A DNA stretch of 64,000 nt from Cyanobacteriota bacterium (GCA_046045965.1 JBJOKS010000015.1:1-64000); one strand, 5' to 3'. Positions 44,175-64,000 are shown, numbered from the stretch's first letter. The notes: a model not told the origin generated them from the letters alone. Numbers and translations are program-made.

Positions 44175-45413
44175 ATGATATTATCACTGTCTTCTCAAAA
44201 TGTTATCCAGTATCTGCAAAAAGCAGGTCTGTGTAGCTCAGAAGATAGCGCATTATATGAATCTGATTTACCAGAAAGTGGCGGTAATAATCGGAATTTA
44301 CTGGTGAAGCTGGCAGATAATCGTAAACTTCGGGTTAAACAACAAAGGCGCATGAATTTTGATCGCAGTCGCCATGATTTTTTTAATGAGTGGCTGTTTC
44401 ACCAATTACTCGATAAGTTTCCAGTTATTGGCAATATTTCGGCGATCGCATCATTATTGCTCCATTTTGATCAAGAAAATTCTATCCTTGTCCATAGTTA
44501 CTTAAGTGAATATATGGAATTGGGGGAATTTTACGAAAGCACAAGTATTTTCCCTATAGAAATTGCCACCGCCATTGGTACGACATTAGCGGGGTTACAT
44601 CGTTCTACTTTCCAAAAACGAGAGTATCGTGATTTTATGGATACTGCTCCCGAAGGACAGTTTCGCTATCACTATTACAACCCCGCTCAAGGTATAGGTT
44701 CAATTAATCAAGATATCTTTGGACATATTCCCACAGAGGCACTCAAATTTCATACTCTTTATCAGCAATATGAAAGTTTAGAATCAGCGATCGCCGACTT
44801 AGCATATGAATGGAAACCCTGTTGTTTAACTCACAATGATTTACAGTTAAACAATATTTTGGTTCATTCCCGTTGGCAACAACTAGATAATTGCTTGGTA
44901 AGATTGATAGATTGGGAAGCTTGTGCTTGGGGAGATCCAGCTTTTGATTTAGGAACCTTACTAGCAAGTTATGTCAAACTTTGGCTTTCGAGTTTAGTAG
45001 TAGATCCCAGTTTAGAATTAGAAGAATCTCTACATTTGGCAATGATCCCGCTAGAGGTAATTCAACCTTCAATTGTGGCGATAATCCGCGCTTATCTCCA
45101 TGCTTTTCCCATGATTTTGGAATACCGTCGGGACTTTATATTGCGTGTTATTCAGTTTACAGGTTTGGCACTCACTCATCAAATTCAAAACATGATTGAG
45201 GAACGCAAATACTTTGATAATACCCACCTGTGTATGCTGGAAGTTGCTAAAAGTCTATTAACCATGCCTGAGCAAGCTGTGTTAACTATTTTCGGCAGTT
45301 CCGAGTCAGAAATTCTCCAACCTGTAACCGGAGTAAACACAATCGCTAAACCGGAAAAAGAACGGCAACTACTGCGGATTTATTACGAAAAAACTCGCCT
45401 TCGTGGTTGTTAG
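44175..45413 (+). CDS. APH/choline-kinase-fold phosphotransferase (class V LanK-like)
   Basis: LRVKQ, LTHNDLQLNNIL, LIDWE, WGDPAFDLG. Confidence 0.8.
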   Translation: MILSLSSQNVIQYLQKAGLCSSEDSALYESDLPESGGNNRNLLVKLADNRKLRVKQQRRMNFDRSRHDFFNEWLFHQLLDKFPVIGNISAIASLLLHFDQENSILVHSYLSEYMELGEFYESTSIFPIEIATAIGTTLAGLHRSTFQKREYRDFMDTAPEGQFRYHYYNPAQGIGSINQDIFGHIPTEALKFHTLYQQYESLESAIADLAYEWKPCCLTHNDLQLNNILVHSRWQQLDNCLVRLIDWEACAWGDPAFDLGTLLASYVKLWLSSLVVDPSLELEESLHLAMIPLEVIQPSIVAIIRAYLHAFPMILEYRRDFILRVIQFTGLALTHQIQNMIEERKYFDNTHLCMLEVAKSLLTMPEQAVLTIFGSSESEILQPVTGVNTIAKPEKERQLLRIYYEKTRLRGC

Positions 45414-45454
45414 TATTTTAGGTAGTATTTAAATTTGGAGGTGCAAATTTATTC

Positions 45455-46546
45455 ATGTTAGATAATTCTACCAATCACATCATCAATTCTTTATTTGATA
45501 TTGCCAGCAATATTCAAATATCACCAAACTTTTGTATTCAACATCCCAATTATCAACCCTTTGCTCTACCAGCAACAGTAGCAAATCGCTTTAAACACAA
45601 TTCACCAGATTTACAACATAAATATCTAGCTCTACTCTTGCGGAATTTCCTACACGGTATTTATTATAATGGTTCGCTGCAAACTGTGTTATCAGTCAAT
45701 GCTGATCATGGAAATTACTCACCACACAAAAGTTTAGAAGAAAATTATAATGTGGGCATTGATGGGGATTTTTATGAGCAATTACACCAAAATAATCACG
45801 GTATTGGTCATTATGATTCTAGTTGGGAAGTATTAAGGCTAGAACCTGATCAGAGTATCGCCGTAACTAAAAATGATTTGACATTGTATGTTGAGCCAGA
45901 ATGTTATCTCAAATCTAGTAAAAAGTCTGTGAAACCAGGTGATTTAATAGCCATTTGGATGCCCAAAAATCGCTTACACAATGGCTGTTATGTGGCAGTT
46001 AGTAATCTAGGACAGGAACGCAAAATTACATCAGAGGCTAATTTGGGAGTAGGACGAATTTATTTTAATTTTACGCCATTGGGTGCGATCGTTCTCATGG
46101 ATACCCTCACACAAAAACTCAACAACGCCAATATTCCCTTTAGTTTTGAAGTTCTTTATAACCCTGGAAGTTATGGGCGTTATGATGCTGGTACACTTCA
46201 CTTTGAAAGACAAGATTATCCAGTCATTCATAAAATTCTTCAGGCAGCTTATACACAACATCAATCTTATTTTCACCCAGAAATTCCCCTATTTACTAAA
46301 TTTTTAGCTCCCGGACTCAGTTTATCAGAAGAACCAAACCAAAAATTTGCTGCCCAGGAAAGTTTCGGGATGAACAGATGTCAAATAGTTGCTAATGCTT
46401 TGTTAGAAGCTTGGGAAAAAGGTAAAAATGCCATTGAAGAACGCATCCAAATTATTGATAAACATTTTGCACAACATTTAATTGATGTTCAGCGTCCTTA
46501 TCTTAACCCCAGTTCTGAAGATATATACATTCCCTTAAATTGCTAA
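45455..46546 (+). CDS. HopA1-family protein (class V LanY-like phospho-elimination lyase)
   Basis: RIYFN, YGRYDAGTLHF, PLFTKFLAPGL, EEP, ESFGMNRCQIVA, PYLNP. Confidence 0.8.
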   Translation: MLDNSTNHIINSLFDIASNIQISPNFCIQHPNYQPFALPATVANRFKHNSPDLQHKYLALLLRNFLHGIYYNGSLQTVLSVNADHGNYSPHKSLEENYNVGIDGDFYEQLHQNNHGIGHYDSSWEVLRLEPDQSIAVTKNDLTLYVEPECYLKSSKKSVKPGDLIAIWMPKNRLHNGCYVAVSNLGQERKITSEANLGVGRIYFNFTPLGAIVLMDTLTQKLNNANIPFSFEVLYNPGSYGRYDAGTLHFERQDYPVIHKILQAAYTQHQSYFHPEIPLFTKFLAPGLSLSEEPNQKFAAQESFGMNRCQIVANALLEAWEKGKNAIEERIQIIDKHFAQHLIDVQRPYLNPSSEDIYIPLNC

Positions 46547-46558
46547 TAACTCAACTTC

Positions 46559-46591
46559 AGATCCCCCATTTCTTAAAGAAGTCGGGGATCT
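46559..46591. repeat. Palindromic dispersed repeat / possible terminator
   Basis: AGATCCCCCATTTCTTAAAGAAGTCGGGGATCT. Confidence 0.65.
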
Positions 46592-46668
46592 AAATCCCTT
46601 TGCAGTAAAATAAGTTTGTAGCGCAGGTACTTTACCTGTTTTTTGTTTTAATTGAGGATTTTTAGCAG

Positions 46669-47070
46669 ATGATTTTCACATATCAAAGAACCGTCAGATT
46701 TGCAGATACTGATGCTGCGGGAGTGGTTTATTTTGCTAATACTTTAAGTATGTGTCATGAAGCTTACGAAGAATCACTACGGAATTCAGGTATAAATATC
46801 AAAACTTTTTTTACACATCCATCTGTTGCTTTTCCCATTGTTCATGCAAATGTGGATTTTTTACGTCCGATGTATTGCGGTGACAAGTTAATGATTAGTT
46901 TAATACCACAAAAAATAGGTATGGATAAATTTAACATTAACTATGAAATTACGGTGGTTGATGTAATAGTTGCTAAGGCAATTACAAGGCACGTTTGTAT
47001 TGATGTGAATAGTAGAATTAAGCAGGAATTACCAAATGAGATGATTTCTTGGTTGGAAACGTTCGCGTAG
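46669..47070 (+). CDS. Hot-dog-fold thioesterase, probable 1,4-dihydroxy-2-naphthoyl-CoA hydrolase
   Basis: [30 protein letters not shown]; adjacent to the men cluster. Confidence 0.85.
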
Positions 47071-47137
47071 CGTGCCGTAGGCATACCGCAGAGACGCAGA
47101 GGGCGCAGAGAGAAGAAAATCAAGGGAAGAGATTATA

Positions 47138-47212
47138 TAATTCATAATTCATAATTCATAATTCATAATTCATAATTCATAATTCATAATTCATAATTCG
47201 TAATTCGTAATT
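47138..47212. repeat. STRR: (TAATTCA)x8 + (TAATTCG)x2
   Basis: Read directly. Confidence 0.95.
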
Positions 47213-47231
47213 AAAAATTAGGAATCAAGAA

Positions 47232-48602
47232 TTAAGAATTAACAGATGATTTTTCAATAAAATCTAGGGCTATTTGTTGGAGTTGTTGACGGTTTATTTT
47301 ACCTTGTTCATTACGAGGTAAGTTTGGTAGGGGAATCCAATATTTAGGAATTTTAAACTTACTCAGTTTATCTTTTAGTTGGTTTTGAATTTCTAAAATA
47401 GAGGTATTTGGGTGTTTAGGAATATAAATAGCTGTTAACGCTTCTCCCCAAATTTTATCAGGTATACCAATTACACAAACATCAATAATCATGTTTGTTT
47501 TTCTCATCTCTGATTCAACTTCTATCGGGTAAATATTTTCGCCTCCAGTAATAATTTTATTACTACTCCGTCCAATAATATTTAAATATCCCTCTGCATC
47601 TAAAATACCCATATCATCTACTAATAAATTATCTCTATTTTCCCAAAGTTGGGGATAATAACCTAAAGCTAAGGATTTAGCTTTTATATTTATATTTCCT
47701 GTCAAATTATCAATTGTTATTTCCGCATGGGGGAGAATTTGCCCACTATTAACTTTACCTTTCAAAAAATCATCAGGTTTCAAAGTAGCAACTTGAGAAG
47801 CTGTTTCTGTCATTCCATAGGTAGGTGCTAACCTAATTTTATGAAATCTCGCTTTTTCTAACAATTCCTCCCATGCCGGCGCACCTCCTAAAAGTACAGT
47901 TTTAAACTGAAATAACCATTGTGTTAATTGCTTATTTTGCAGCAATCTTTGTAGCTGGGTAGGAACTAAAGATATAAAAAAATCTGAATAATTAATATTA
48001 TATATACTAGGTATTTGTTGAGATTCTATTTCTTTAAATGAGGTAATTACTAATTTACCACCAGTGGTAAAACTTCTCATAAACTGCATCAAACCACTGA
48101 CATGATATAGCGGTAAAACACAAAAAGAATTAACTGCATTTAACTGAAAATATTCTGTAAAACCTTGTACAGATGCGGTTAATGTCTCCCAGGTGTGAAT
48201 AGCAAATTTAATCTTTCCTGATGAACCACCTGTAGGAATCATAATCCAATTTTCGAGATCAGATAAATGATTATTCCCAGTCCCCAGTCCCCAGTCCCCA
48301 GTCCCCAGTCCCCAAACTATATCCGGTTGTACCAAATCAAAAACTTGTTCCCATTCATTTTTCCCCCAGTCGGGATTACATAAAAAAACTGGACATTTCG
48401 CAGCACAAGCAGCAATGAAACCGGCTAAAAATCTCACTGGTTCACGTTCAGCTAAAATTATTTTTGGTGGGATTTCGTTTTTTGATAACTGCGTTAATTC
48501 TAAATATAATTCTGTCGCTATTTTATAAAAATTATGGCTATTTTCAACAATTAACCAATCATGAGTTTTGAGATTTTGTAAATAATTTAAAGGTTGTTCC
48601 AT
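47232..48602 (-). CDS. menE: O-succinylbenzoate-CoA ligase
   Basis: TGGSSGKIK, LPLYHVSG, TYGMTET, ITGGENIYP; men cluster context. Confidence 0.9.
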   Translation of the reverse strand: MEQPLNYLQNLKTHDWLIVENSHNFYKIATELYLELTQLSKNEIPPKIILAEREPVRFLAGFIAACAAKCPVFLCNPDWGKNEWEQVFDLVQPDIVWGLGTGDWGLGTGNNHLSDLENWIMIPTGGSSGKIKFAIHTWETLTASVQGFTEYFQLNAVNSFCVLPLYHVSGLMQFMRSFTTGGKLVITSFKEIESQQIPSIYNINYSDFFISLVPTQLQRLLQNKQLTQWLFQFKTVLLGGAPAWEELLEKARFHKIRLAPTYGMTETASQVATLKPDDFLKGKVNSGQILPHAEITIDNLTGNINIKAKSLALGYYPQLWENRDNLLVDDMGILDAEGYLNIIGRSSNKIITGGENIYPIEVESEMRKTNMIIDVCVIGIPDKIWGEALTAIYIPKHPNTSILEIQNQLKDKLSKFKIPKYWIPLPNLPRNEQGKINRQQLQQIALDFIEKSSVNS

Positions 48603-48613
48603 AAAGATTGAGG

Positions 48614-49546
48614 CTAGTTCGCTTCTTTTTCTGTAAAATAGTGGTTGATACCAAAACCTACTGCGCGATTATTTCTAGATAATTCTGCTGCTAATTTTAA
48701 TGCAGCTTGTCTACCAATTGCAGTTTCAAATACAGATGAAAATACAACATCAATTTGATATTTTTGGCAAAATTTCCTTAACCTTGATGGTGAACCCACT
48801 ATACCAGGTTTAATTACAAAAATTCCTTCCCAACCCCGTTGGTAACAATTTTCAAGTTGTTGTAATGTTGCTACAGATTCATCTAAAGCAATTTTTGTAC
48901 TATAATAATTACTCAATTCTAGCATTTCTGCGAATTTATCTACAGGTAAAGGTTGTTCAATAAATTCAATGTTGTTTGTAAAAAGTTCGCATTGTTTCAA
49001 GAATAATTTAGCTGAATCATAGTTAAGTCCACCATTAGCATCTAAACGTAATTTTGCTGATGTGGGTAATTTCTGAATCAGTAAATTAAAGATTTCTAAT
49101 TCTTTGGCTATTTCATCAACTCCAATTTTCCATTTAAATGTTTGATAACCCTGTTTCCATAAACTTTCCCATTGATTTAAAGCTGCTTCTCCTGCTGGTA
49201 ATAATCCGCTATAATTAAGATTGTCGTAATTGATAAATTTGGGATTTTCTGATAAATTCTCTAGTGCTGACTCAAAACCAAATTGACAAGCTGGTAATTT
49301 ATCTGGAATTGCAAAAATTATCTCTGGGGTAATTTGTTCTGGTAGTTGATGACAAAAATCTAAAGCTTGTTCTAAAGTTTCCGAACCAAACCAAGAAATA
49401 GGGGAAATTTCTCCCCAACTAACTTTACCTGTAATGTCTATAAGTCTGAGAATTATGCTTTCGCGTGTTTCCCAAATTCCATGATTTGTAATTACAGGAA
49501 GAGTGAATTTTTGAGTAATGTGACGAAAGGAAAATTGATAAATCAT
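48614..49546 (-). CDS. menC: O-succinylbenzoate synthase
   Basis: FKWKIG, RLDANG, FIEQP, ALDES, IKP. ATG 49546 overlaps the menA stop. Confidence 0.92.
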   Translation of the reverse strand: MIYQFSFRHITQKFTLPVITNHGIWETRESIILRLIDITGKVSWGEISPISWFGSETLEQALDFCHQLPEQITPEIIFAIPDKLPACQFGFESALENLSENPKFINYDNLNYSGLLPAGEAALNQWESLWKQGYQTFKWKIGVDEIAKELEIFNLLIQKLPTSAKLRLDANGGLNYDSAKLFLKQCELFTNNIEFIEQPLPVDKFAEMLELSNYYSTKIALDESVATLQQLENCYQRGWEGIFVIKPGIVGSPSRLRKFCQKYQIDVVFSSVFETAIGRQAALKLAAELSRNNRAVGFGINHYFTEKEAN

Positions 49547-50445
49547 GAACCAATCACAAATCCTACACCCAAAAGTAAGCAACTCAAAAAATGAACTTTG
49601 ACAGCGATGAATTTAGAATTACTAACTTTGTCTGGTAGGTGATGATTTTCTAGAACATGACGACATAATTGAAACCCAAAGGGTAAACTTAAGCAACTTA
49701 ACAAAGTCCAAACTGGGAAAATTCCCAATCCAACTAACAACAAAGATAAGGGATAAATACTAGCTGTAAACCAAACTAATACTTGTGCGCCTTTTTCTGT
49801 ACCCAAACGCACAATAGGCGATCGCTTTCCAGCAGCTATGTCATCCTTAACTTGATGAAAATGTGAACAAAATAAAATTAAACTGGTGACAATACCAACA
49901 ATCACGGAAGCTGCTAAATTAGTAATTGACCAAGTTTGAGTTTGACTGTAGTATACTGCTGTCATTCCCAAAGGTCCAAAAGCAAAAAAGCAGAGAATTT
50001 CCCCTAAACCCTGGTATCCTAAACGAAAAGGAGGTCCTTGGTACATATAACCCAAACCGCAGCACAGCAGGATTATACCAATTACCGTCGGGTCTTTTTG
50101 CAAAAGGGCGATCGCAATTATTCCCAACAAACCCGAAACCAAGCATAAATTACCCAACCAAAACATTAACTGCTTATTACCAGTTAAATTCACCAAGGAA
50201 TGATGTTTATTTTTATCAATACCTGTTTCTGCATCAAAAACATCATTACTGATATTTTCCCAAGCCAAAATTAAAATTGCCGCAGTCATAAAAACCGCGA
50301 ATATGACACCATTAAAAATCCTAGTTTCTGCAAACGCTACCGCCGAACCTACCCATATAGGCATAATAGCAACACTGTACATTGGTGGTTTAATAGCCGC
50401 CATCCATAATTTATTTTTGGGGATTGATATCTGATTTGCAGTCAT
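49543..50445 (-). CDS. menA: DHNA phytyltransferase
   Basis: AAIKPPMYSVA, NDVFDAETGID, HFHQVKDDIAAGKRS. Confidence 0.95.
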   Translation of the reverse strand: MTANQISIPKNKLWMAAIKPPMYSVAIMPIWVGSAVAFAETRIFNGVIFAVFMTAAILILAWENISNDVFDAETGIDKNKHHSLVNLTGNKQLMFWLGNLCLVSGLLGIIAIALLQKDPTVIGIILLCCGLGYMYQGPPFRLGYQGLGEILCFFAFGPLGMTAVYYSQTQTWSITNLAASVIVGIVTSLILFCSHFHQVKDDIAAGKRSPIVRLGTEKGAQVLVWFTASIYPLSLLLVGLGIFPVWTLLSCLSLPFGFQLCRHVLENHHLPDKVSNSKFIAVKVHFLSCLLLGVGFVIGS

Positions 50446-50743
50446 TAGTCGTGATCAATTAAATTACTAAAAATTTACTTATCAGTTAGATTTTATAGTT
50501 TGGTGAGACATTTTACGGTATTGAATTACAGAAAAATGCTAATTTTGTGATTGATGGTTTACCTTCTGTTCACAAAACTTGACTTGACATTTTGCCACCT
50601 CCAAGAGTATGTATTCTCGGTTTTCCCAGAACCAACTAAAGCTGAGGCTGGTTAATGGTAACAGAATATGCTACCTATAGAAATACGACCACGATTTATT
50701 ACACTTTAGGAAGATAACTTAAAAAAATTTAACTTATACATCC

Positions 50744-52159
50744 ATGACAATTTCACCATGTCGCAGCAGTTTCTTTGTAGACTATAAAGATTTGCATCAA
50801 TTACTGTTAGCAGTGCAGGAAAAGTGCTATGAAAATCACAGCCAGCAAATTGTTAGTATTTCCCTACCAATTGATTTCATAGACCCTTTAGTTGTATTAG
50901 AGAAGTTTGCTCAAGCAAATACATTGAATTTTTACTTTGAAAATAAAAGTAAAGGTGAAGCTATTGCAGCCATTGATGCTATCACAAAATTAGAGATTAC
51001 TGGTAAACACAGATTTAGTAAAACTGAAGAATTTATCAAAGATTGTCTCAAAAATGTGATCAATTTTGGCAATACTAACCAACATTTTGCAGGTACTCAC
51101 TTTTTTTGTAGCTTCAGCTTTTTTGATCAGCATCACCAATTAGATTATCCATTTCCATCTGCTACTATTTTCCTACCTAAATTACAAGTAGCTGTCAAAA
51201 ATTCTGCTTGCACCTTAGTTGTGAATAATTTAATTCATGCAGGTATTAATATTCAAACTATATTACGGGAATTACAAAGCCAAATTAAGACCCTCCAATC
51301 TTTAGGTAATTACTCTCCCAACCTGGAAATTTCTCCAACGACCTTTATCAAAAACCAGATTACCAATTCCGACATATTTAAACATTCAGTATTATCAGCC
51401 TTAGAAAAAATTGCATCTAATCATTTAATAAAAATTGTTTTAGCAGATGCCTTGGATGTCAGATCATATAATTCCTTTAACCTATTCAAATCTTTAAATA
51501 ATCTGCGACAATTACATCCTAATTGTTATGTCTTTTCTACCAGCAATGGCAAAGGACAAAACTTTATTGGTGCTAGTCCAGAACGTTTAATTAGTATTGA
51601 AGATCAGCAATTAATTACTGATGCTTTGGCAGGTTCAGCACCCAGAGGTAAAACACCTAATGAAGATGCGGCTAATGCCAACAATTTAGTTAATAGTAAT
51701 AAAGAAAAACACGAACACAGCCTAGTAATTGATTTTATCACCCAACGTCTATCACAACTAGGATTATTTCCGCAAATTTTAGCCCCGCGTCTACGACAAT
51801 TATCTAATATCCAACATTTATGGACACCAATTACTGCTGTAGTACCTGCTAACATCCATCCCTTAAAAATCGTTGCCCAATTGCATCCGACACCAGCAGT
51901 AGCAGGTGCAGCCAGAGATATTGCTTGTGCAGAAATTCGCCGTTATGAAAGTTTTGAAAGGGGTTTATATGCAGCACCGCTAGGTTGGGTAGATGGGGAA
52001 GGAAATTGTGAGTTTATTGTCGGTATTCGTTCAGCATTAATAGATGGCGATCGCGCTAGACTTTATGCTGGTGCTGGTATCGTCGCCGGTTCTGATCCTG
52101 ATAAAGAATTTGCTGAAGTGCAGCTTAAACTTCAAGCATTACTAAAAGCATTAGTCTAA
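50744..52159 (+). CDS. menF: Isochorismate synthase
   Basis: GASPERL, ALAGS, KEKHEH, LHPTPAV, IRSAL, AGAGIV, LKLQ. Confidence 0.93.
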   Translation: MTISPCRSSFFVDYKDLHQLLLAVQEKCYENHSQQIVSISLPIDFIDPLVVLEKFAQANTLNFYFENKSKGEAIAAIDAITKLEITGKHRFSKTEEFIKDCLKNVINFGNTNQHFAGTHFFCSFSFFDQHHQLDYPFPSATIFLPKLQVAVKNSACTLVVNNLIHAGINIQTILRELQSQIKTLQSLGNYSPNLEISPTTFIKNQITNSDIFKHSVLSALEKIASNHLIKIVLADALDVRSYNSFNLFKSLNNLRQLHPNCYVFSTSNGKGQNFIGASPERLISIEDQQLITDALAGSAPRGKTPNEDAANANNLVNSNKEKHEHSLVIDFITQRLSQLGLFPQILAPRLRQLSNIQHLWTPITAVVPANIHPLKIVAQLHPTPAVAGAARDIACAEIRRYESFERGLYAAPLGWVDGEGNCEFIVGIRSALIDGDRARLYAGAGIVAGSDPDKEFAEVQLKLQALLKALV

Positions 52160-52271
52160 CGTAGCTATAGCCTGAATTAAATAAGTGTAACAAAATCTGT
52201 AACGAGAATATTATTCTCCCTAACTCTAGTCTAAAGTGGTGGGAAAGTTAGGGGTAAACCCTGAAAGGGTA

Positions 52272-53066
52272 ATGTTCAAAGATATTCGAGACTATCAAAT
52301 TTTATTTCTCAGTCTATTCCTCATCTTGGGAATAGGGACAAGAGACTGGACACTGCGGCCTGAATTGATTTTAATAGCGATCGCCACCTGTGTAATCACA
52401 CAATCTATATTCTCATTAGTCACCGCAAAAGAAGCAAATATCAATCTTCGCAGTTCCCTCATCACCTCTCTCGGACTCAGTTTACTACTACGGGCTGACC
52501 ATTGGACAACAATGGCTTTAGCCGCAGCAACTGCCATCGGTAGCAAATTTATCTTCCAAACAGGTGATAAACATTTCTTTAACCCCGCCAACTTTGGCAT
52601 TATTTCCGCCTTAGCACTAACTCCTGATGCGTGGGTTTCCCCCGGTCAGTGGGGGGAAGAATGGTGGTATTGTCTGTTATTTGTGGGTACTGGAGGGATG
52701 ATTTTACAACGAGTTGGCCGTTGGGACACTACCGCAGCTTTTTTAAGTGCATATTCCCTACTGGAAGCAGTTCGTAATATTTGGTTAGGTTGGACTTGGG
52801 ATGTTTACTTACATCGGTTGATGAGTGGGTCTTTGTTACTATTTGCCTTATTTATGGTGACAGATCCCCGTTCTATTCCTAACGCCCCCATCGGTCGTAT
52901 TATTTGGGCTGTATGTATCGCCATTATCACCTTTATTTTGCGGAATTATTTCTACCTTTCTACCGCAGTTTTCTGGGCTTTATTTGCCCTTGCACCTTTA
53001 ACTATTCTCATAGATACTCTCTGGTTTGCCCCTAGATTTTCTTGGTTACAAGAAGAAAATTCTTAA
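52272..53066 (+). CDS. Stand-alone RnfD/NqrB-family membrane protein
   Basis: HFFNPANFG and FMVTDPRS motifs; multi-TM. Confidence 0.75.
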   Translation: MFKDIRDYQILFLSLFLILGIGTRDWTLRPELILIAIATCVITQSIFSLVTAKEANINLRSSLITSLGLSLLLRADHWTTMALAAATAIGSKFIFQTGDKHFFNPANFGIISALALTPDAWVSPGQWGEEWWYCLLFVGTGGMILQRVGRWDTTAAFLSAYSLLEAVRNIWLGWTWDVYLHRLMSGSLLLFALFMVTDPRSIPNAPIGRIIWAVCIAIITFILRNYFYLSTAVFWALFALAPLTILIDTLWFAPRFSWLQEENS

Positions 53067-55143: not shown

Positions 55144-55246
55144 GGAAAAACCTATCATTCTCATGTTCAGTCGATAACTTTCTGAATGACGGTAATCAGG
55201 ATCTCTTGTTCCCGGTACTTACTTGAGAATACTGAAGCAGTGAAAA

Positions 55247-55810
55247 TTATTGTTTAATTCTGGGATGCTGGGGACGACAAGGACTTCCCCAACATACTTG
55301 GCCTGCTGGCATATTGGTAAATACACTGCTACGCGCACCTATGACAGCATTAGCACCAATTTCTACTCCCAGTCCAATAAAACAATCTGTTGCTACCCAT
55401 GCACCGTTACCAACGGTAATACTTGCGGTTTTCAACCCAAAGGCTGGATCTTGAATATCATGACTACCTGTACACAGGTAACTTTTTTGGGAAACTATAC
55501 AATGTTCACCAATGTGAATCTGATCCAAGCTGTAAAATACTACATCATCACCAATCCAACTATAATCACCAATGGTAACTTTCCAAGGGTAGGTAAAACG
55601 GGCTGTGGGTCGAATTACTACGCTTTTGCCAATTTTCGCTCCAAACAGTCTCAGTAGGTTACAACGGAGATTATTTAGTGGGTGGAGAGTGAGAGGAAAG
55701 GCGATCGCTTGCACTAACCACCATAACAAAACATACCAACCCGGACGACCACGATCAAACCTGGATTGATCATATTTGCGTAAATCTACAAATGGTTTTT
55801 CATCTGTCAT
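55247..55810 (-). CDS. hpsU: WcaF-like acetyltransferase (hormogonium polysaccharide HpsU-like)
   Basis: YDQSRFDRGRPGW, LRLFGAKIG, YPWKV, LCTGSHD hexapeptide repeats. Confidence 0.75.
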   Translation of the reverse strand: MTDEKPFVDLRKYDQSRFDRGRPGWYVLLWWLVQAIAFPLTLHPLNNLRCNLLRLFGAKIGKSVVIRPTARFTYPWKVTIGDYSWIGDDVVFYSLDQIHIGEHCIVSQKSYLCTGSHDIQDPAFGLKTASITVGNGAWVATDCFIGLGVEIGANAVIGARSSVFTNMPAGQVCWGSPCRPQHPRIKQ

Positions 55811-55817
55811 TGGTAAT

Positions 55818-55963
55818 TGGGGACTCTTTACTGGGGACTCTTTACTGGGGACTGGGTACTCTTTACTGGGTACTGGGTACTGGGTACTGGGTACTGGGTA
55901 CTGGGTACTGGGTTATTAGTTTTTAGCTAATAACTAATGACTAATGACTAATAACTAATGACT
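55818..55963. repeat. STRR block: CTGGGGACTCTTTA / (CTGGGTA)n / CTAATGA-CTAATAA units
   Basis: Read directly. Confidence 0.9.
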
Positions 55964-56904
55964 TAAATTGCTGTTTTTTCAACTTCTTTATTGACAGGTT
56001 TAAGAACAGATTCAGCAGTTTTGGCAACGTTTAAAGTTCCACCTAAAGATCGTAATTCGTAAAGTTTGACTCCTATTTGATATTCATATTGACTCAATAA
56101 ACGTCCATAGATATATCCGGCTTTGCCATCTAAAAAACCACGTTGAATAAAGTAGAATAAGATAAACCGCAAGAATGGTTTAAATGGCAAGCGTACCCAC
56201 AGAGTTTTTAAGAAACGTTTGCGTTGTACCGCATCACCAAATAAATTTGCGCCTATAGTACCACTGTCATCTTTACCTGTAAGTAAATTAAAATAAACAC
56301 GGGCTTCCCAGTTAGAATATCTATTATGTCTTTCTAACCAGTGATAGATATCCCGGAAGTCCTCGTGGATCATATCATGTTTAAGATAGCCAACTTTTCC
56401 TTGCAATATTACGTGTTCGTGAACTTCGTTATCCCCTGTGTTGGGTATATCTTCAGTGTTCAGGTTTTCGTAACGGCCTTTTTGATGTTTAAATAACCGC
56501 AAATTCCAATCAGGATATTTACCACCGTGACGAATCCATTTCCCTAAGAAAAATACACGGCGATTGATATAATAACCATTACATTCATCCTTTTTAATTA
56601 ATTCAGCAATTTCTGCCCATGATTCAGGTGTAATGCGTTCATCACAATCAACTATTAATACCCATTCATTGCGAAAAGGCAGGTTTTCTAATGACCAATT
56701 TTTCTTTTTTGGCCAACTGCCATTAAATTTAAATTGTACGACTTTAGCACCGTAACTTTCGGCTATTTCGATGCTGCGATCAGTGCTTTGCGAATCAACA
56801 ACAAAAATTTCATCGGCTACTTGTAAACTCGTAAGACAAGCTGGTAGGTTTGCTTGTTCGTTTTTGGCGGGAATGAGTACGGAAACTGGTATCTTAGATG
56901 ACAT
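55963..56904 (-). CDS. Glycosyltransferase family 2
   Basis: IPAKNE, VDSQSTD, VDCDE, VHEH. Confidence 0.92.
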   Translation of the reverse strand: MSSKIPVSVLIPAKNEQANLPACLTSLQVADEIFVVDSQSTDRSIEIAESYGAKVVQFKFNGSWPKKKNWSLENLPFRNEWVLIVDCDERITPESWAEIAELIKKDECNGYYINRRVFFLGKWIRHGGKYPDWNLRLFKHQKGRYENLNTEDIPNTGDNEVHEHVILQGKVGYLKHDMIHEDFRDIYHWLERHNRYSNWEARVYFNLLTGKDDSGTIGANLFGDAVQRKRFLKTLWVRLPFKPFLRFILFYFIQRGFLDGKAGYIYGRLLSQYEYQIGVKLYELRSLGGTLNVAKTAESVLKPVNKEVEKTAI

Positions 56905-56922
56905 AATAATTGTTATTTTAAT

Positions 56923-57855
56923 TCATTTTTTGTTGTGTTTAGACAGCAGTCCGTGAATGGCAGCATTTAAGTAACCAATCTGACTATAAGCATAGACCAA
57001 TTTATCAAATCTTTCGGCAGGGTCAGTAATATATTGTAATGATTTATATAAGCCACGCAAACACTTTTCGCTTCCTCGTTGCAGTTGTCCAATCCCAGCT
57101 TGACCAGCTAGTTGTTCTCTATAGCATTCACTAATGCCTTGCCACCAACCCCGGTTGAAAAACCAGGAGGGTTTTAGCCGTTCTGGGGCGACATTGTGAG
57201 CTACTAAGGCTGCGGGAAGATAAGCGACTTGCCAACCACGCTGGAGGGCAAATTCGGTCATTTGCAGTTCTTCGTTGGATAAGAGGTTTTTGCCGACTCT
57301 TCCGAGTTGTGGATCAAAACCTCCTATCTCGTCTAGAAAACTACGACGGATGGAGTAATTTAAGCCTCTAGGGGTGGAACCTGGTTGTTGAATGTGGAGG
57401 ATGTTGTCTCCTAAGTCGTAAGCTCCTAAGTTAGCAGCTAGTCCGGGAGATAGCCATTTTGGTGGTTGGATGTCTGGAGGCCAAAGTAGAGTAACTTTAC
57501 CACCGGCGATCGCTAATTTAGAATTATTTTGATATGCTGAGTACAAAACTTGCAACCATTGGGGACTGGCTTCTGCATCATCATCTAAATAGGCGATAAT
57601 GTCGGCATTGGCAGCTTTAGCCCCTGTGTTACGAGCTACCGATAAGCCAATAGTTGGTTCAAAAATATACTTCAGGTGAGGATGCTGGGATCTTTGTTCT
57701 ACTACTTCACGGGTGCGATCGCTTGAACCATTATCCACTACCACGATTTCAAAGTTAGCAGTAAATTCCTGCCCTAGCAGACTGTCAATTGCTGCGCCTA
57801 AGTAGGTATCTCGATTGTGAGTACAAATGATGGCAGAAATCTGGATATCTGGCAT
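56923..57855 (-). CDS. Glycosyltransferase family 2
   Basis: ICTHNR, VDNGSSD, GLSVARN, YLDDD. Confidence 0.92.
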   Translation of the reverse strand: MPDIQISAIICTHNRDTYLGAAIDSLLGQEFTANFEIVVVDNGSSDRTREVVEQRSQHPHLKYIFEPTIGLSVARNTGAKAANADIIAYLDDDAEASPQWLQVLYSAYQNNSKLAIAGGKVTLLWPPDIQPPKWLSPGLAANLGAYDLGDNILHIQQPGSTPRGLNYSIRRSFLDEIGGFDPQLGRVGKNLLSNEELQMTEFALQRGWQVAYLPAALVAHNVAPERLKPSWFFNRGWWQGISECYREQLAGQAGIGQLQRGSEKCLRGLYKSLQYITDPAERFDKLVYAYSQIGYLNAAIHGLLSKHNKK

Positions 57856-58041
57856 AGTCCTGGTTTGGTACTGAGGAATTTGAGTTTTTAGTTGAAAATA
57901 CTCAAATCAATTCTACTCTGGCTCTCTGTTTGTTAATATACCCTAAAATTCACCAAGTTTACCAGCCGTATTTATACTGTAAAAAACTTTATGAAAACTT
58001 GTTAATTCCTTCATATTTAATTCATCCAATTTTTTGCCAAA

Positions 58042-58848
58042 CTATAATTGTTGAATATGGCTGTGTAAAGCCACAAGTGTTTCCGCTAATTGGCTTAAGC
58101 GAGTTTCTAGATGCTGCTTGCGTCCAAACAGTTGACGTAATTTTTGATACCTGGCAATAGCCATACTAACGGTAGGAACCTGATCGACTGGACATTGACG
58201 AGACCAAACTTTACCAGACTCATCAATTCCACAAAGGCGGTAGCCAGTACGGGATGATTGATAGGATACCTTCTCTCCAGACTCGCAAATTTCCTGCACA
58301 TAATCCATCAGCCGTTCAACTTCCGCATGACGCAGGGTTGCGGTTCCCCCTGGTTCTGCTTCTTGGGGATTGGATTCTAACCAGCCATTAATAACTGGAC
58401 CTTCTAAGTAAATATCCTGAATTTCTTGAAGAATTGTTTGTAATTCTATTTGCCACCCTGCCACCGTCTCTTGAATATCCTGTAGGAGATTCATAGCAAA
58501 TGCTGGATTTGCACCGTGACGATGGTTACTAAAGCTTGGTGATTTAAATTTGGGTAAGCTGGGTGTTTTTCCTCCAGTTTCTTGGGCGGGAAAAGTCTGT
58601 ACGGAATTATGTTTGGGAAATAAATGCTGCTGTAATTCGGTTTCGATCTTAGTATTTGTATTTACATCAACTGTACTGATGCCTTCATCGGTGGAAGTTT
58701 CTCTACTTTCTCCAGCTTTGTTAGATCCGATACTAATCCTAAAGGAGAATGGGCGTTTTGTCCCATCACCTGTTTCTGGTGGCAACTGAGTTCCGTGTAT
58801 ACCTAAATCATGTAGAGTTGCCTCAATGCGTTTTAAGCCTGGTTTCAT
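58042..58848 (-). CDS. Conserved cyanobacterial hypothetical protein
   Basis: HRHGANP, YLEGPVINGWLES, GYRLCG; C-terminal coiled coil. Confidence 0.7.
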   Translation of the reverse strand: MKPGLKRIEATLHDLGIHGTQLPPETGDGTKRPFSFRISIGSNKAGESRETSTDEGISTVDVNTNTKIETELQQHLFPKHNSVQTFPAQETGGKTPSLPKFKSPSFSNHRHGANPAFAMNLLQDIQETVAGWQIELQTILQEIQDIYLEGPVINGWLESNPQEAEPGGTATLRHAEVERLMDYVQEICESGEKVSYQSSRTGYRLCGIDESGKVWSRQCPVDQVPTVSMAIARYQKLRQLFGRKQHLETRLSQLAETLVALHSHIQQL

Positions 58849-59015
58849 AAACAGATCCTGAAGCTTGTTCTGCTGGTATTGTTAACTATTGAGAGTTTGT
58901 TAAGAGCGCAAATTTATTGAGAAACTTTTCTTTATTGTATAAGGAATTATAGTAATTGATAAGAATCTTAACTAGAAATCAGGACTGTTTTGAACAGATA
59001 TATGTCAAGATAATT

Positions 59016-59564
59016 ATGAGTAGAGTTATTTTAGTAACAGGTCCAGCACGCTCAGGGAAAAGTGAATGGGCGGAAAATTTAGCAATTCAGTCCAGAAATC
59101 CAGTTATTTATATAGCAACAGCTACAGAAAATCCCGATGATCAAGAGTGGCAACAACGTATTGAAAAACACAAACAACGTCGGCCGCAAGATTGGGTAAC
59201 TCTTTCTGTACCTGTGGAACTTGCTGCTACTCTCAGTAATGCCAAATCTGATACCTGTATTTTGATTGATTCTTTGGGAACTTGGGTAGCTAATTTTTTG
59301 GAAGAGGATGATTTAAACTGGGAAAAAACCTTGGCAGAGTTGTTAGCAGTTATATCTTTAGTTGAGGCTGAGTTGCTGTTTGTTGCCGAAGAAACAGGTT
59401 GGGGTGTAGTTCCAGCTTATCCCATAGGTAGGAAGTTTCGCGATCGCTTGGGTGCTTTAGTCCGTCAGTTAGGTGCGATGTGTGAAACGGTTTACTTAGT
59501 AACTGGTGGTCATGTTCTCAATCTCAGTGTTATCGGTTTTCCCTTACCACCCACAAAGTCTTAA
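59016..59564 (+). CDS. cobU: Adenosylcobinamide kinase / cobinamide-phosphate guanylyltransferase
   Basis: TGPARSGKS, RIEKHKQRRP, EETGWGVVP, FRDRLG. Confidence 0.95.
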   Translation: MSRVILVTGPARSGKSEWAENLAIQSRNPVIYIATATENPDDQEWQQRIEKHKQRRPQDWVTLSVPVELAATLSNAKSDTCILIDSLGTWVANFLEEDDLNWEKTLAELLAVISLVEAELLFVAEETGWGVVPAYPIGRKFRDRLGALVRQLGAMCETVYLVTGGHVLNLSVIGFPLPPTKS

Positions 59565-59621
59565 TTCAAAATTAAAGATTCACCAGGTAAAATTTCGGAA
59601 TTAGCCACTAAAATTAAGATT

Positions 59622-60065
59622 ATGGCAAATAAACAAGACGTAAAAAAATATCTTGCTCACTGGTTTCAGTTAGGGAAGAAAGTTATAGTTGGTCACAGTG
59701 ATCAAAGCTTCTTACCTAACCCAGTGTTAAAGGGCGATCGCTATAGTCCAGAATTTGAAGAGTCTTGGGAAACAATTCTTTCCTTAGAAACCCGTGATTG
59801 TTATTTAGAAGGCACTCAAGAAACTATAGCCCAACTGCTGACACCAACATGGGAAGTGCTTCCTTGTGGACGCTGTGCCATGTTAGTACCCGTTAAAACT
59901 ATGGGAATGCCATCAATATTGTGTCCTTGTTATTATTTGGACACCTGGCCTAATAATGAATTACCAGCGCCAAGATGTCCAGTGAATAGTCAACAACAAT
60001 TGATAGGAATTCGCGATGCCTGTAGCGAGCGAAGCGATCGCTTGCTGGAAAATGTATCTTCGTAA
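59622..60065 (+). CDS. Conserved cyanobacterial hypothetical protein (Cys-rich)
   Basis: VKKYLAHWFQLGK, YSPEFE, LEGT, CGRC, CPC, WPN. Confidence 0.75.
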   Translation: MANKQDVKKYLAHWFQLGKKVIVGHSDQSFLPNPVLKGDRYSPEFEESWETILSLETRDCYLEGTQETIAQLLTPTWEVLPCGRCAMLVPVKTMGMPSILCPCYYLDTWPNNELPAPRCPVNSQQQLIGIRDACSERSDRLLENVSS

Positions 60066-60092
60066 ATTTAACAACTTGTTAACCACATACAG

Positions 60093-60127
<35 letters not shown>

Positions 60128-60624
60128 AAAACAGGGGAATGTGTATAGGTTTCAATTTTGATTCTGTACCTCATTGATCTGCAATCTACTATAAGTTGTT
60201 AAATCATTCTTTTTAAGAGATTTTTAAAGAGATTTAAATAAAATTGTGGTTTTCCCTATAAATAACCACTTCATTTATATATATAGTTTTGCATTTGAGT
60301 CAAATACAGTTAAATACCTCTTTTCAAACCTCTCTCCCACAAGGATAGGGGTTTTGTCTTTTTCAATTCCATCCAGAACCACTATAACAGAGAGTTTTGA
60401 ATCTGGAATTTTCATCTTTATTATTTTTGCACAATTACTTATAATTAGCGCGTGTATTTTTCGGAAATACGGATTTCTAAATCTGGTAATTAAGTTTGCA
60501 TAAATTGAGCATGACTTCAAGGGTTACTCCTCGATATTCTATTAACAAGCGAGGAATTGAGCAGCACGCAAAACTAAATCAACTCCAAGCGATAACGAAG
60601 ATCAAGATCAAGGAGATTTCTATC

Positions 60625-60840
60625 ATGTCTAACTTATTTACCGCAGTATCCGTTGAACAACAAGAAATCGTAGCTGGTGGTATTACATTGGATGAGTTAA
60701 CTGGAACTGCTTTCTCTGAAGAAATTCTGCTATTTGATACCACTCTTTCCTCTAATCGTAACGGTAGCACAGTAGATCAGTTTGTTTTCGCTTCTGATGT
60801 ATTTACTGATGCTTTCAAAGATGTTAACATCAACATCTAA
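60625..60840 (+). CDS. Double-glycine-leader precursor peptide 1 (CTB-family bacteriocin-like), 71 aa
   Basis: AGGAGA RBS; leader MSNLFTAVSVEQQEIVAGG; 52-aa core. The true start is 60625, not 60496. Confidence 0.85.
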   Translation: MSNLFTAVSVEQQEIVAGGITLDELTGTAFSEEILLFDTTLSSNRNGSTVDQFVFASDVFTDAFKDVNINI

Positions 60841-61314
60841 TTGATTAATTATTAGGCAATTAACTCATATACAAAATTAATTGCCTAAGCTTCTTCCATC
60901 ACTCTTGGATAAATTGAAGATTTGTCGGCGTTCCAGTCAAGGTAAATTCGATATTTGCTCTGAAAGTGATGGAAGATTGTTAATCTAATCAGTTGTGAAA
61001 TTAGGATTTTTTTGGTTTTTTGATATATATCTTAATAAGAAAATCAACATAATTAAACTTAAAATTTCAGGATATAGCTCCCCGAATTCTCTAAGAAGTC
61101 GGGTATATTGTTGTTGATATTTAAATACTTCTCTCTAATAATTAGCGCGTGTATTTTTCGGAAATAAAGATTTCTAAAGTTGGAAATTAAGTTTGCAGAA
61201 ATTGAGCATGACTTCAAGGGTTAGTCCTCGATATTCTATTAACAAGCGAGGAGTTGAGCAGCACGCAAGACAAATCAACTCCAAGCAATAACTCAGATCA
61301 AGGAGATTTCTATC

Positions 61315-61533
61315 ATGTCTAACTTATTTACCGCAGTATCCGCTGAACAACAAGAAATCGTAGCTGGTGGAAGCATTACATTGGATGAATTGGCTGCAAC
61401 TATTTTCTCTGAAGAAATACTGCTATTTGATACCACTCTTTCATCTAATGGTAACGGTAGCACAGTAGATCAGTTTGTTTTCGCTTCGGATGTATTTACT
61501 GATGCTTTCAAAGATGTTAACCTCAGCATCTAA
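61315..61533 (+). CDS. Double-glycine-leader precursor peptide 2, 72 aa
   Basis: Leader MSNLFTAVSAEQQEIVAGG; close paralog of precursor 1. Confidence 0.87.
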   Translation: MSNLFTAVSAEQQEIVAGGSITLDELAATIFSEEILLFDTTLSSNGNGSTVDQFVFASDVFTDAFKDVNLSI

Positions 61534-61722
61534 TAACATCTAATTGAGTAATCATTAGGCAATTAAATCATATACAAAATTAATTGCCTAATCTTCTTCC
61601 ATCACTCTTAGATAAATTCAAAATGTTTCGGCGATACAGTCAACGTAAATTCCATATTTAATTTGAAAGTGATGGAAGATATCTATTTGGCTTTAATCAT
61701 AAAATAACCAAAAAATAACCAT

Positions 61723-62031
61723 ATGTCTGAAGATATCAAAACCCCAAAATCTGAATTATTCTATGATTTGTCTGAACAAGAACAAGAGTCAGTAGTTGGA
61801 GGAATTTCCTATTATTCACTTGATATTCAAAAGACAGATATATACTCTTATGCCTTGAATGAAACAAATTTTTCTGATGGTAACAAGAATTTTTCTACCA
61901 AACAACAAACTGGATATCTGCTTTCACAAATTACTATTGGATTGAATATATTTGCTCAAGAAAGCTGGCAAAGTTTCAACCAGAGTAGCTTAAGTTTATT
62001 AAATACGTTATTTCGGCTTCTACATTTTTAA
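61723..62031 (+). CDS. Divergent double-glycine-leader peptide 3, 102 aa
   Basis: LFYDLSEQEQESVVGG leader; Ser/Thr-rich, Cys-free core. Confidence 0.75.
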   Translation: MSEDIKTPKSELFYDLSEQEQESVVGGISYYSLDIQKTDIYSYALNETNFSDGNKNFSTKQQTGYLLSQITIGLNIFAQESWQSFNQSSLSLLNTLFRLLHF

Positions 62032-62127
62032 ACTTGACAATCAAAAAGATTACTGAAAACCTAAGATAAGCAAACAGATTGACAACATTTTTGGTTGATA
62101 GTTGTTAATCTGTAAACTAATTAATCT

Positions 62128-64000
62128 ATGAAACTCCAATTTGTTAAACAGCACAGTGCAGAAGACTGTGGTGCAGCTTGTTTAGCTGCGATCGCTAAAT
62201 ATTACGGTCATACATTTACCCTCACCCGCATTCGTGAAGCCGTCGGAACTGGACAAACTGGAACTACATTATTAGGCTTAAGAAGAGGTGCAGAAAGCCT
62301 TGGTTTTAAAGCTAACCCAGTCAAAACATCACCAGAAGTTCTTGACAGAATGAACGAAGCACCCTTACCAGCAATTATTCACTGGAAAGGAAATCATTGG
62401 GTTGTTTTATACGGTAAAAAAGGCAAAAATTATCTGATTGCAGATCCCGCAGTCGGGGTGCGATATCTTTCTAAAAAAGACTTAATTGATGGTTGGAAAG
62501 ATTGGTTAATTCTCTTACTAGAACCAGACCCCATCCGCTTTTTTGAACAAGAAAGTGATAAAACTGGAGGTTTTTGGCGTTTCTTTAGACGAGTTTGGAT
62601 TTATCGCGCTATTTTAGTCCAAGCTTTACCTCTCAATTTAGTCTTGGGTTTACTATCTTTAGCTTCTCCTTTTTTACTGCAAATTCTCACCGACGATGTG
62701 CTAGTTAGAGGTGACACCAAATTACTCACTACTGTAGCTATTTCTGTAGTAGTAATGAATTTTGTTTCTAATAGCCTTTCATTTGTTCAATCTAACTTAA
62801 TTGCTCATTTTGCTCAACGCCTACAATTAGGGTTAGTTTTAGATTTTGGTCGGCAAATTCTCCGCTTACCTTTAAGTTATTACGAAGCTCGACGTAGTGG
62901 TGAAATCGTTAGCCGCTTGCAAGATATTCAGCAAATTAATCAATTAGTTACCAAATTAGTCGTTAGTCTACCCAGCCGATTTTTTATAGCCTTAATTTCT
63001 CTGGGTTTCATGCTTTTTTATAGTTGGAAGCTGACCACAGTAGCTTTAATCATTTCTGCGGTAATGACCTTATCTACTATTGTCTTTCAGCCGACTTTAC
63101 AACGAAAAACTCGTGAGCTTTTAGTACAAGATGCAGAAAATCAAGGTGTTTTAGTTGAAACATTTAAAGGTGCATTAACCCTCAAAACAACTACAGCAGC
63201 ACCACAGTTTTGGGATGAATTAGAAAGCCGTTTTGGTCGTCTGGCTAATCTCACATATCGAACCATGCAAATTGGCATTATTAATAATACCTTTTCTGGT
63301 TTTGTTTCTGGTATTGGTGGAGTTATTTTACTGTGGTTTGGTGGCTATTTAGTGATTGAACCGACTGAAAATCTCAGCATCGGAAAGTTACTTGCATTTA
63401 ACTCAATGAACGGTAACTTCTTGGGTTTAATTGGTACTATCATCAGCTTTGTGGAAGAATTTACGCGTGCGAAAACTTCTGTACAACGTCTGACAGAAGT
63501 TATTGATGCTACTCCAGAAAATGAAGGAGATGGTAAAAAGCCTTTTGCTAAAATTCCCGAAAATGCTGACATTTGTTGTACAAACATTAACTTTCATTAT
63601 GCAGGTAGAATTGACCTTTTAGAAGATTTTTCTTTAACAATTCCCGGTGGTCAAGTTGTGGCTTTAATTGGTAAATCTGGATGTGGTAAAAGTAGCCTTG
63701 CTAAATTAATAGCTGGATTATATACTCTCCAATCTGGAAATATCCGCATTGGACTTTATAACCTCACAGACCTTTCTCTAGAAAGTCTACGTCAACAGGT
63801 AGTTCTTGTTCCTCAAGACGCTCATTTTTGGAGTCGTTCTATTGTTGAAAATTTCCGTTTAGGAGCGCCCTACGTCACATTTGAGCAAATTGTCAGAGCT
63901 TGTCAAATTTCTGGTGCTGATGAATTTATCAGTAAACTTCCAGAAAAATATCAAACTATTTTAGGTGAATTTGGGGCTAATATTTCTGGTGGTCAACGTC
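62128..64000 (+). CDS. C39 peptidase-containing ABC transporter (PCAT), 3' end outside the window
   Basis: ATG 62128 gives MKLQFVKQHSAEDCGAACL; HWKGNHWVV and ADP; TM domain; Walker A GKSGCGKS; ISGGQR at the window edge. Absent from the ORF track because there is no stop. Confidence 0.93.
   Translation, partial: MKLQFVKQHSAEDCGAACLAAIAKYYGHTFTLTRIREAVGTGQTGTTLLGLRRGAESLGFKANPVKTSPEVLDRMNEAPLPAIIHWKGNHWVVLYGKKGKNYLIADPAVGVRYLSKKDLIDGWKDWLILLLEPDPIRFFEQESDKTGGFWRFFRRVWIYRAILVQALPLNLVLGLLSLASPFLLQILTDDVLVRGDTKLLTTVAISVVVMNFVSNSLSFVQSNLIAHFAQRLQLGLVLDFGRQILRLPLSYYEARRSGEIVSRLQDIQQINQLVTKLVVSLPSRFFIALISLGFMLFYSWKLTTVALIISAVMTLSTIVFQPTLQRKTRELLVQDAENQGVLVETFKGALTLKTTTAAPQFWDELESRFGRLANLTYRTMQIGIINNTFSGFVSGIGGVILLWFGGYLVIEPTENLSIGKLLAFNSMNGNFLGLIGTIISFVEEFTRAKTSVQRLTEVIDATPENEGDGKKPFAKIPENADICCTNINFHYAGRIDLLEDFSLTIPGGQVVALIGKSGCGKSSLAKLIAGLYTLQSGNIRIGLYNLTDLSLESLRQQVVLVPQDAHFWSRSIVENFRLGAPYVTFEQIVRACQISGADEFISKLPEKYQTILGEFGANISGGQR

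Follow-up and report, generated by a model that had tools for sequence, protein, structure and literature searches.

A kinase/HopA1 gene pair widespread in Nostocales lacks the catalytic lysine of class V lanthipeptide lyases and may act in protein phosphorylation

The stretch analysed here (hereafter the window) comprises 64,000 nucleotides from a Cyanobacteriota genome that is 92% complete (G000), and positions are counted from its first letter. It carries a gene pair that resembles the class V lanthipeptide dehydratases CaoK/CaoY and LxmK/LxmY (PMC9486802; PDB 9DK1-3; PMC12141560). The first gene (44175-45413, + strand) encodes a LanK-type Ser/Thr kinase of the APH fold, 412 amino acids (aa) long, which scored 48.9 bits with PF01636 (APH) and 68.6 bits with the LxmK model NF038156, whose cut-off is 315. 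The second (45455-46546, + strand; 363 aa) encodes a HopA1-like, LanY-type protein that scored 198.9 bits with PF17914. The best fold match of the kinase model was LxmK (9DK1-3), followed by APH-fold small-molecule kinases. An APH-fold kinase beside a PF17914 protein is what an earlier reading of this DNA (the original prediction) had described as a class V LanK/LanY-type pair, and both this assignment and the co-orientation of the two genes, with no precursor gene adjoining either, were confirmed by gene calls and by Pfam and NF scores. The same prediction had joined the pair to double-glycine (GG) peptide genes and an exporter farther downstream, as one split pathway for a poly-dehydrated or phosphorylated, anionic secreted peptide.

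Sixty-seven loci with a HopA1 protein were fetched (a fragment and two genes truncated at contig ends being set aside) and were grouped by gene order first, into a precursor-less group (n=51) and a precursor-linked group (n=16). The same split corresponded to one branch of the tree, with a support of 100. Alignment to 9DK1_B placed codon 232 of the window gene (46148-46150, + strand), which encodes Glu, at the position of CaoY Lys219 and of the equivalent LxmY Lys. At this column the precursor-less group has Gln (42 of 51), Glu (8) or Gly (1) and never Lys, Lys is present in all 16 precursor-linked paralogues, and the best 120 database homologues have Gln in 99 cases and Lys in one. No compensating new conserved Lys or His was found in the alignment of the 51 loci. 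The spacing of R201/E232/R242/H249 equals that of CaoY R187/K219/R229/Y236 within one residue; Arg201 is retained in 46 and Arg242 in all 51 orthologous loci, and Arg308 and Asp244 are also conserved. The CaoY Tyr236 position, which is His at codon 249 of the window gene (46199-46201, + strand), is relaxed across the clade (Tyr in 23, His in 24 and other residues in 4 of 51). A single-sequence fold prediction of the lyase had a predicted local distance difference test score (pLDDT) of 34 and was unusable. The ratio of nonsynonymous to synonymous substitution rates was 0.12-0.22 for the kinase and lyase genes (10 pairs per gene), and the pair is under purifying selection.

The K219A variant of CaoY yields phosphorylated peptide only (PMC9486802), and judging from such homologous mutants the lyase of the clade would be inactive. 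As it lacks the catalytic Lys, the pair likely adds phosphate and does not remove water. Of the two products offered by the original prediction, the phosphorylated one is thus the more likely chemistry and the poly-dehydrated one is not supported; its statement that the pair cannot make a lanthipeptide holds.

The window pair shares with CaoK/CaoY and LxmK/LxmY the adjoining APH-fold kinase and HopA1-like genes, the kinase motifs and the equivalents of Arg187 and Arg229. Unlike in these systems, however, the lyase Lys is replaced and the Tyr relaxed, the kinase has an extra basic tail, the pair is single-copy and vertically kept, and no precursor, cyclase or decarboxylase lies near it. A precursor containing Cys and Ser/Thr together with a cyclase or decarboxylase, by which class V lanthipeptide clusters are recognised, was not found at the pair loci. 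To judge from its sequence, the pair would fall outside the active class V dehydratases at a defining residue and resemble the first half of one.

The pair forms a syntenic, precursor-less clade, vertically kept and single-copy. In one sample, 23 of 24 family genomes contained it (the one without it is 80% complete), and in a second sample 32 of 32 contained the kinase; the two samples share genomes, and related genomes do not count as independent. In genomes of other families no precursor-less pair was found (0 of 16 and 0 of 218); eight outside genomes had any match, and the six that were inspected (G169 and G215 not among them) all had precursors beside the pair. Named records in the clade tree span heterocyst-forming families. 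No matches to the precursors of a second, intact G000 pair on contig C77 (see below) were found in the 51 orphan loci. A long-leader precursor was absent from 10 of the 32 genomes searched, all of which hold the pair, and no fasciclin-side precursor was found within 1.5 kb in these ten; the pair is therefore retained without its usual substrates.

The kinase residues K55, D222, N227 and D246 (catalytic Lys, HxD..N and D(W)E motifs) are all present in the window and in 49 of the 51 orthologues. The clade kinases have gained a conserved insert (residues 155-173) and a clade-specific C-terminal tail (residues 399-412; 45369-45410, + strand) with a conserved Thr407 in a basic context and a terminal Cys. 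Conservation in the tail is high (T407 in 49, L409 in 51, R410 in 50, G411 in 50 and C412 in 46 of 51), and it occurs in none of the 16 precursor-linked paralogue kinases. The kinase model, built from 47 sequences, had a pLDDT of 59, with the tail under 50. In one genome (G246; L389, G246:C17) the lyase gene is cleanly lost, the kinase is intact with its tail and the thioesterase gene follows directly 3'. The tail motif was not found at the end of another G000 protein, and an Atlas search with the tail gave no usable match. An origin of the tail as the remnant of a kinase-lyase fusion linker was rejected, as the fusions among 150 representatives showed no likeness to it. A plasmid search returned two paralogues at 43% and was uninformative.

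Loss of the lyase active site is not confined to this clade. In a wider set (150 representatives at 50% identity, giving 143 aligned domains with a residue at the Lys column), Lys was found in 101 domains and another residue in 42, and a tree of 134 representatives and 17 reference rows contained at least 15 changes at this column. Where the Arg/Lys/Tyr set is broken and a precursor could be detected (n=17 loci, excluding a LanC fusion and a locus that has no precursor), the cores have a median of 41% Lys+Arg and 20% Ser, versus 6% and 10% in intact loci (n=33); Lys+Arg reached at least 15% in 16 of 17 broken loci versus 2 of 33 intact ones. These data support phosphorylation as an end point for broken-lyase pairs, and the Lys/Arg- and Ser-rich cores beside them suggest that their kinases prefer basic Ser/Thr sites, which the tail of the window kinase resembles. 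Like the window pair, the broken-lyase pairs couple a kinase that looks active to a lyase that has lost catalytic residues. In contrast to the window clade, they have a precursor beside them, mostly lose Arg187 and Tyr236, often keep Lys, and form a separate branch. In 13 loci a broken-lyase pair shares one operon with an exporter of the same subfamily as that of the window (58-68% identical). Operons of this kind (L127, L177-L198) comprise a precursor, a kinase, a broken lyase (often kinase-fused), an exporter and HlyD; their cores are protamine- or silaffin-like, with Lys/Arg and Ser, and are candidate phosphorylated polycations.

A link to heterocysts comes from Anabaena PCC 7120. Its genes alr2463 (411 codons) and alr2464 (362 codons) have the same neighbours as the window pair, with divergent all2460/all2461 and a TMEM14-like peptide 2523 bases from the HopA1 gene (PMC13342950, PMC8153245, PMC3141674), and from the matching sizes and gene order we infer that they are orthologues of the window pair. 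The gene alr2463 is listed as a heterocyst-core phosphotransferase (PMC4365693 Table 5). According to published data (PMC3141674 S1; PMC13342950 datasets), its reads per kilobase per million were 0.9, 0.9, 9.0 and 3.3 at 0, 6, 12 and 21 h after nitrogen removal (1.0x, 9.8x and 3.6x at 6, 12 and 21 h). In these data alr2464 rose 4.5x at 12 h, alr2465 (1.3x) was not induced with alr2463, and the compared genes hetP, alr0099 and hetC rose 10x, 10x and 27x. They also contain a HetZ chromatin immunoprecipitation peak upstream of alr2463 (6.5-fold), and both the peak and expression fall in a hetZ mutant, like hetC.

DIF1-like (sigma-HetZ) promoters, defined as a TCCGGA-like -35 element with a TGnA -10 element, lie 5' of the pair in 18 of 47 orthologues, against 0.64 in shuffled sequences (maximum 4). 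The gene alr0099 mentioned above is presumably hetZ. Within the first 400 bases upstream, NtcA, HetR, SigJ and SigF motifs were not enriched; a relaxed NtcA pattern was found in 19 of 48 sequences versus 11.5. As to possible expression in the organism itself, one of three metatranscriptomes contained 0.77 of the words of the pair. In the window, a sigma-70-like element (TAAAGA-17-TATAAT, 43958-43986) is located at -217 and recurs in the lineage of the window; it is possibly a promoter swap for the DIF1-like one. HetP matches were found in 10 of 11 family genomes and in none of 3 outside, and HetP has a Ser-rich linker. The true hetP abuts an intact kinase/HopA1 cluster in two genomes (G018 and G022; L208, L212) and in G024 lies between an HlyD remnant and a peptidyl-prolyl isomerase gene; this placement suggests that hetC-hetP derives from a kinase/HopA1 cluster. 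Our literature search, whose coverage ended short of subscription journals and bioRxiv supplements, returned no report of the lyase Lys loss or of a function of alr2463/alr2464.

A palindrome, TGCCA-N3-TGGCA (44011-44023), is a probable regulator site 5' of the kinase gene and is conserved there in 44 of the 51 orthologous loci. It occurs in 1 of 20 loci of the downstream peptide/exporter type, there not upstream of the peptides, and was rejected as a link between the two window loci because of this absence. Genome-wide it is enriched (6-23 sites versus 2-4 for a control in six genomes), with sites at G000 C12:56500, C39:31333 and C7:78419, in L344 and also near hetP. The helix-turn-helix-exporter operon belonging to the intact cluster is preceded by it, as are genes for a DUF4388 response regulator, a TrkA-domain channel and Ser/Thr kinases, which together make up an unnamed regulon.

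Our favoured reading, which we hold with moderate confidence, is that the pair is a class V-type dehydratase domesticated into a Ser/Thr phosphorylation module of early heterocyst development, which does not serve the downstream peptides. The kinase and pseudo-lyase would form a heterodimer as LxmK and LxmY do, and the kinase would phosphorylate Ser/Thr in a basic context. In the absence of a base the phosphate would stay on, bound by Arg201 and Arg242, which would make the pseudo-lyase a non-catalytic, likely phosphate-holding partner; the basic Thr tail could be an in-cis substrate or a brake. As to the target, some protein outside the candidates named here has the best, though still modest, prospects. 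HetP or another regulator of heterocysts, or else an RG(S/T)GR peptide, is a tentative choice, and HetP fits by its timing and distribution; the kinase tail alone and the exported GG peptides are equally doubtful candidates, a little behind it. An extended scheme, in which a writer-reader switch arose from a RiPP (peptide made on the ribosome and modified after translation) dehydratase at the origin of heterocyst formers, with the kinase marking a commitment or patterning factor (HetP, or RG(S/T)GR inhibitor peptides at their Ser/Thr), the dead lyase reading the mark and the exporter half of this ancestral type of cluster becoming hetC-hetP, is speculative and on the whole improbable.

Several observations weigh against the favoured reading. 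Lys reappears in the single homologue mentioned above, and Glu232 or His249 might in principle act as the base in this strain. Two of the 51 kinases lack catalytic residues, the G-loop and the catalytic-loop Lys are relaxed (14 of 51), and the window kinase has Arg at the conserved Leu53, so that it may be only weakly active. The orthology of the PCC 7120 genes, which share sizes and neighbours with the window pair, rests on size and gene order and not on sequence. Unlike alr2463/alr2464, the window and its near relatives have no DIF1-like promoter, and the heterocyst role is therefore carried to the window strain by homology only. One of the 11 family genomes is without a HetP match, and the C-terminal half of HetP, tried as a fused kinase-type leader, was rejected because its hhalign scores (7.6-9.8) were within the shuffled range (5.7-14.3). 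Finally, the exporter of the downstream locus is of a type present in all 24 relatives, so that presence alone cannot discount action in trans on its peptides, and the PCC 7120 exporter orthologue alr5147 is itself up 3.7x at 12 h, a figure based on 15 to 58 reads.

The downstream locus encodes three CTB-family GG peptides, all above the 32-bit cut-off of NF038167 ('CTB family bacteriocin'): peptide 1 (60625-60840, + strand; 52.9 bits), with a 19-aa export-only leader; peptide 2 (61315-61533, + strand; 49.0 bits), its tandem duplicate; and peptide 3 (61723-62031, + strand; 34.4 bits), of a type conserved directly 5' of the exporter. They are followed by a short-type C39 peptidase ABC exporter (PCAT; 716 aa, + strand) with C39, ABC membrane and ATPase domains and a visible catalytic Cys (Cys14 motif), which runs from 62128 past the window end at 64000 to contig position 64278, and by an adjoining 3' HlyD gene. 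As the original prediction had it, no modifying enzyme is present in this block, the core of peptide 1 has 12 Ser/Thr, 9 Asp/Glu, 2 Lys/Arg and no Cys in 52 aa, and the cores of peptides 2 and 3 also have zero Cys. Past 64278 lie HlyD-like, kinase-like, response-regulator-like and RNase Z-like genes (labelled by the look of the sequence and tblastn); the original prediction had proposed to look for HlyD beyond 64000, and a tailoring enzyme was not seen in that part of the contig. Peptides 1 and 2 stem from a single recent tandem duplication of about 700 bp and are 87-92% identical; the duplication (60438-61680) took in the gene together with its upstream region and a long stretch 3' of it that contains an inverted repeat.

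Each of the two loci belongs to its own conserved block, one with the order DUF815 - kinase - HopA1 - thioesterase - men genes and the other with rnfD - glycosyltransferases - cobU - peptides - exporter - HlyD - regulators. The men and cobU genes that the original prediction placed between the loci were confirmed by Pfam, and the glycosyltransferases of the intervening block are presumably those it named hps. The menF-rnfD junction (52159-52236) is a rearrangement breakpoint that joins the blocks in this strain: none of 27 comparison loci with at least 1.2 kb past menF runs into the rnfD-cobU block, and G001, G002 and G018 have no men genes before rnfD. In seven relatives both loci are on one replicon, 0.16, 1.5, 1.9, 2.3, 2.4, 3.0 and 4.1 Mb apart, in the remaining relatives they are on different contigs, and the PCC 7120 counterparts are 3.2 Mb apart. 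The pair and the CTB block adjoin by accident, and the linkage is found only here. With the loci unlinked in every relative examined and with no common leader, promoter element or induction, the single pathway of the original prediction is not supported, and a split pathway is unlikely. Nor is there support for its anionic cores as a trait of the system, as orthologous cores range from cationic to anionic. They differ even within the genus (those of G001 are cationic), a sign of rapid exchange of cores.

For the CTB block the best reading is an independent exporter system like EbfG/PteB, whose own transporter likely exports the peptides unmodified. Enzyme-less GG exporters are in print (PMC3140520), as are EbfG1-4/PteB, from Synechococcus elongatus, and a PCC 7120 cluster, asr5139-alr5148 (PMC4997328, PMC12267927), for which an amyloid or biofilm role is a published prediction only. 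The likeness is one of gene content, namely GG peptides, a short C39 exporter and HlyD without a modifying enzyme. Genes alr5147-alr5152 match the window block by order and size and have been proposed as the best EbfG candidates. The accessible parts of the papers that use the name 'CTB family bacteriocin' report no antibacterial assay.

Although the synteny and profiling that the original prediction had called for gave no linkage in relatives, both loci turned out to be nearly universal in the family, which leaves room for trans action of the kinase on short-leader GG peptides, CTB or other; these would be exported phosphorylated and not dehydrated. We consider this unlikely, if the least so among the rivals. 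The ubiquity of the exporter, its occurrence in one operon with broken-lyase pairs and the induction of alr5147 fit such a role, as do the CTB-locus cores, which are Cys-free in 28 of 28 cases (those caught by the search pattern) and Ser/Thr-rich (0.12-0.36 versus 0.12 in the proteome). However, the 19-aa CTB leader gave no match to the long-leader substrate profile (hhalign probability 0.5%) and lacks the kinase-binding half, the window exporter clusters with two further short-type exporters of G000 (C5 and C8), outside the broken-lyase ones, and the loci are unlinked in relatives. A CTB match is missing from nine pair-holding genomes (none at E 1e-5 in G013, G016, G019, G020, G023 and G024; none over the cut-off in G061, G128 and G217), though most of them have other GG peptides, whereas G040, whose cores are the closest to peptide 1 (50-52% identical), has only an intact clustered pair and no orphan pair. 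The PCC 7120 peptide genes asr5139-asr5146 are flat or near zero, with no HetZ peak listed for them.

Only marginally less probable is a wholly non-catalytic sensor or scaffold that signals by peptide or nucleotide binding. The two kinases that lost catalytic residues keep their frame and tail, the G-loop and catalytic-loop Lys are relaxed, and new conserved surfaces have appeared at 155-173 and in the tail; but the four core kinase residues persist in 49 of 51 loci across the whole order, and G246 deleted the lyase and not the kinase.

We give less credence to phosphorylation of stand-alone long-leader precursors. Such genes (G000:C3:1364-1579, L247-L257, L286-L312) carry the kinase-type leader with no enzyme within 1.5-6 kb, and have His/Ser/Gly/Tyr-rich cores, some ending in Cys runs; they are possible metal-binding secreted peptides. 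The ten pair-holding genomes without any long-leader precursor speak against this substrate, and the occurrence of these peptides follows that of the intact, clustered pair. That pair is exemplified by the second kinase/HopA1 pair of G000, which has its own precursors on contig C77 (G000:C77:477-7691, plus the C39 end and C12 start). It is an intact family 1A cluster with all lyase catalytic residues, and contains Cys-free long-leader precursors, kinase, lyase, a HetP-family gene, a peptidyl-prolyl isomerase, HlyD and an exporter of the long type; the corresponding genes of PCC 7120, all1931/all1932, show hardly any expression. Family 1A HopA1/phosphotransferase clusters with Cys-free GG precursors beside the pairs have been published for cyanobacteria (Eyles et al. 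2021, PMC8153245; type-B LanA in PMC9486802), so this arrangement is already in print. They are the nearest paralogues of the window pair (43-46% identity), but unlike the window clade they keep Arg-Lys-Arg-Tyr and long-leader precursors.

Continued dehydration through Glu232, His249 or another base is improbable. Arg201, Arg242, Asp244 and Arg308 are still conserved and Glu and His can be bases, but Gln, which is unable to act as one, is the commonest residue both in the clade and among the 120 homologues, His249 is found in fewer than half of the loci, and the Lys-to-Ala change kills CaoY and SpvC. Phosphorylation of a small molecule related to the adjacent naphthoquinone genes, suggested by the next-best fold matches and by the co-oriented 3' thioesterase gene in most loci, is the least credible, given the 43% identity to the C77 peptide kinase, LxmK as the best fold match, the lack of alr2465 induction with alr2463 and a men link that is broken in several genomes.

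Further features were seen around these loci. Upstream of the kinase (42247-43830), an IS200/IS605-type tnpB (42523-43800) lies inside a small TMEM14-like gene; the insertion removed about 310 bases, so that conservation upstream of the kinase is down to about 385 bases. A block of a BrxC/D-like ATPase, a TerB-C coiled-coil protein and a DUF815 ATPase (38060-42228) precedes it and, in most orthologous loci, is kept in divergent orientation to the kinase. Elsewhere in G000, the C8 exporter belongs to a second CTB locus (C8:151602-160808) with HlyD, exporter and a tail of GG peptides whose cores are rich in Arg/Gly or in Cys or carry WGGGPG repeats, and the second kinase-like gene, after the response regulator that lies past 64278 (C15:67385-68275), encodes 296 aa, about half of PCC 7120 alr5151, and is possibly truncated.

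Kinase/HopA1 pairs serve as a genome-mining marker for dehydrated peptides, and the most widespread Nostocales copy lacks the residue that dehydration needs. Since Lys is absent from this copy and from the 42 domains of the wider family, phosphopeptides, or no secreted product at all, may be what many of the predicted class V clusters make. The favoured reading also provides a biochemical hypothesis for alr2463/alr2464, a heterocyst-core pair that is driven by sigma-HetZ, is uncharacterised and belongs to a strain amenable to genetics.

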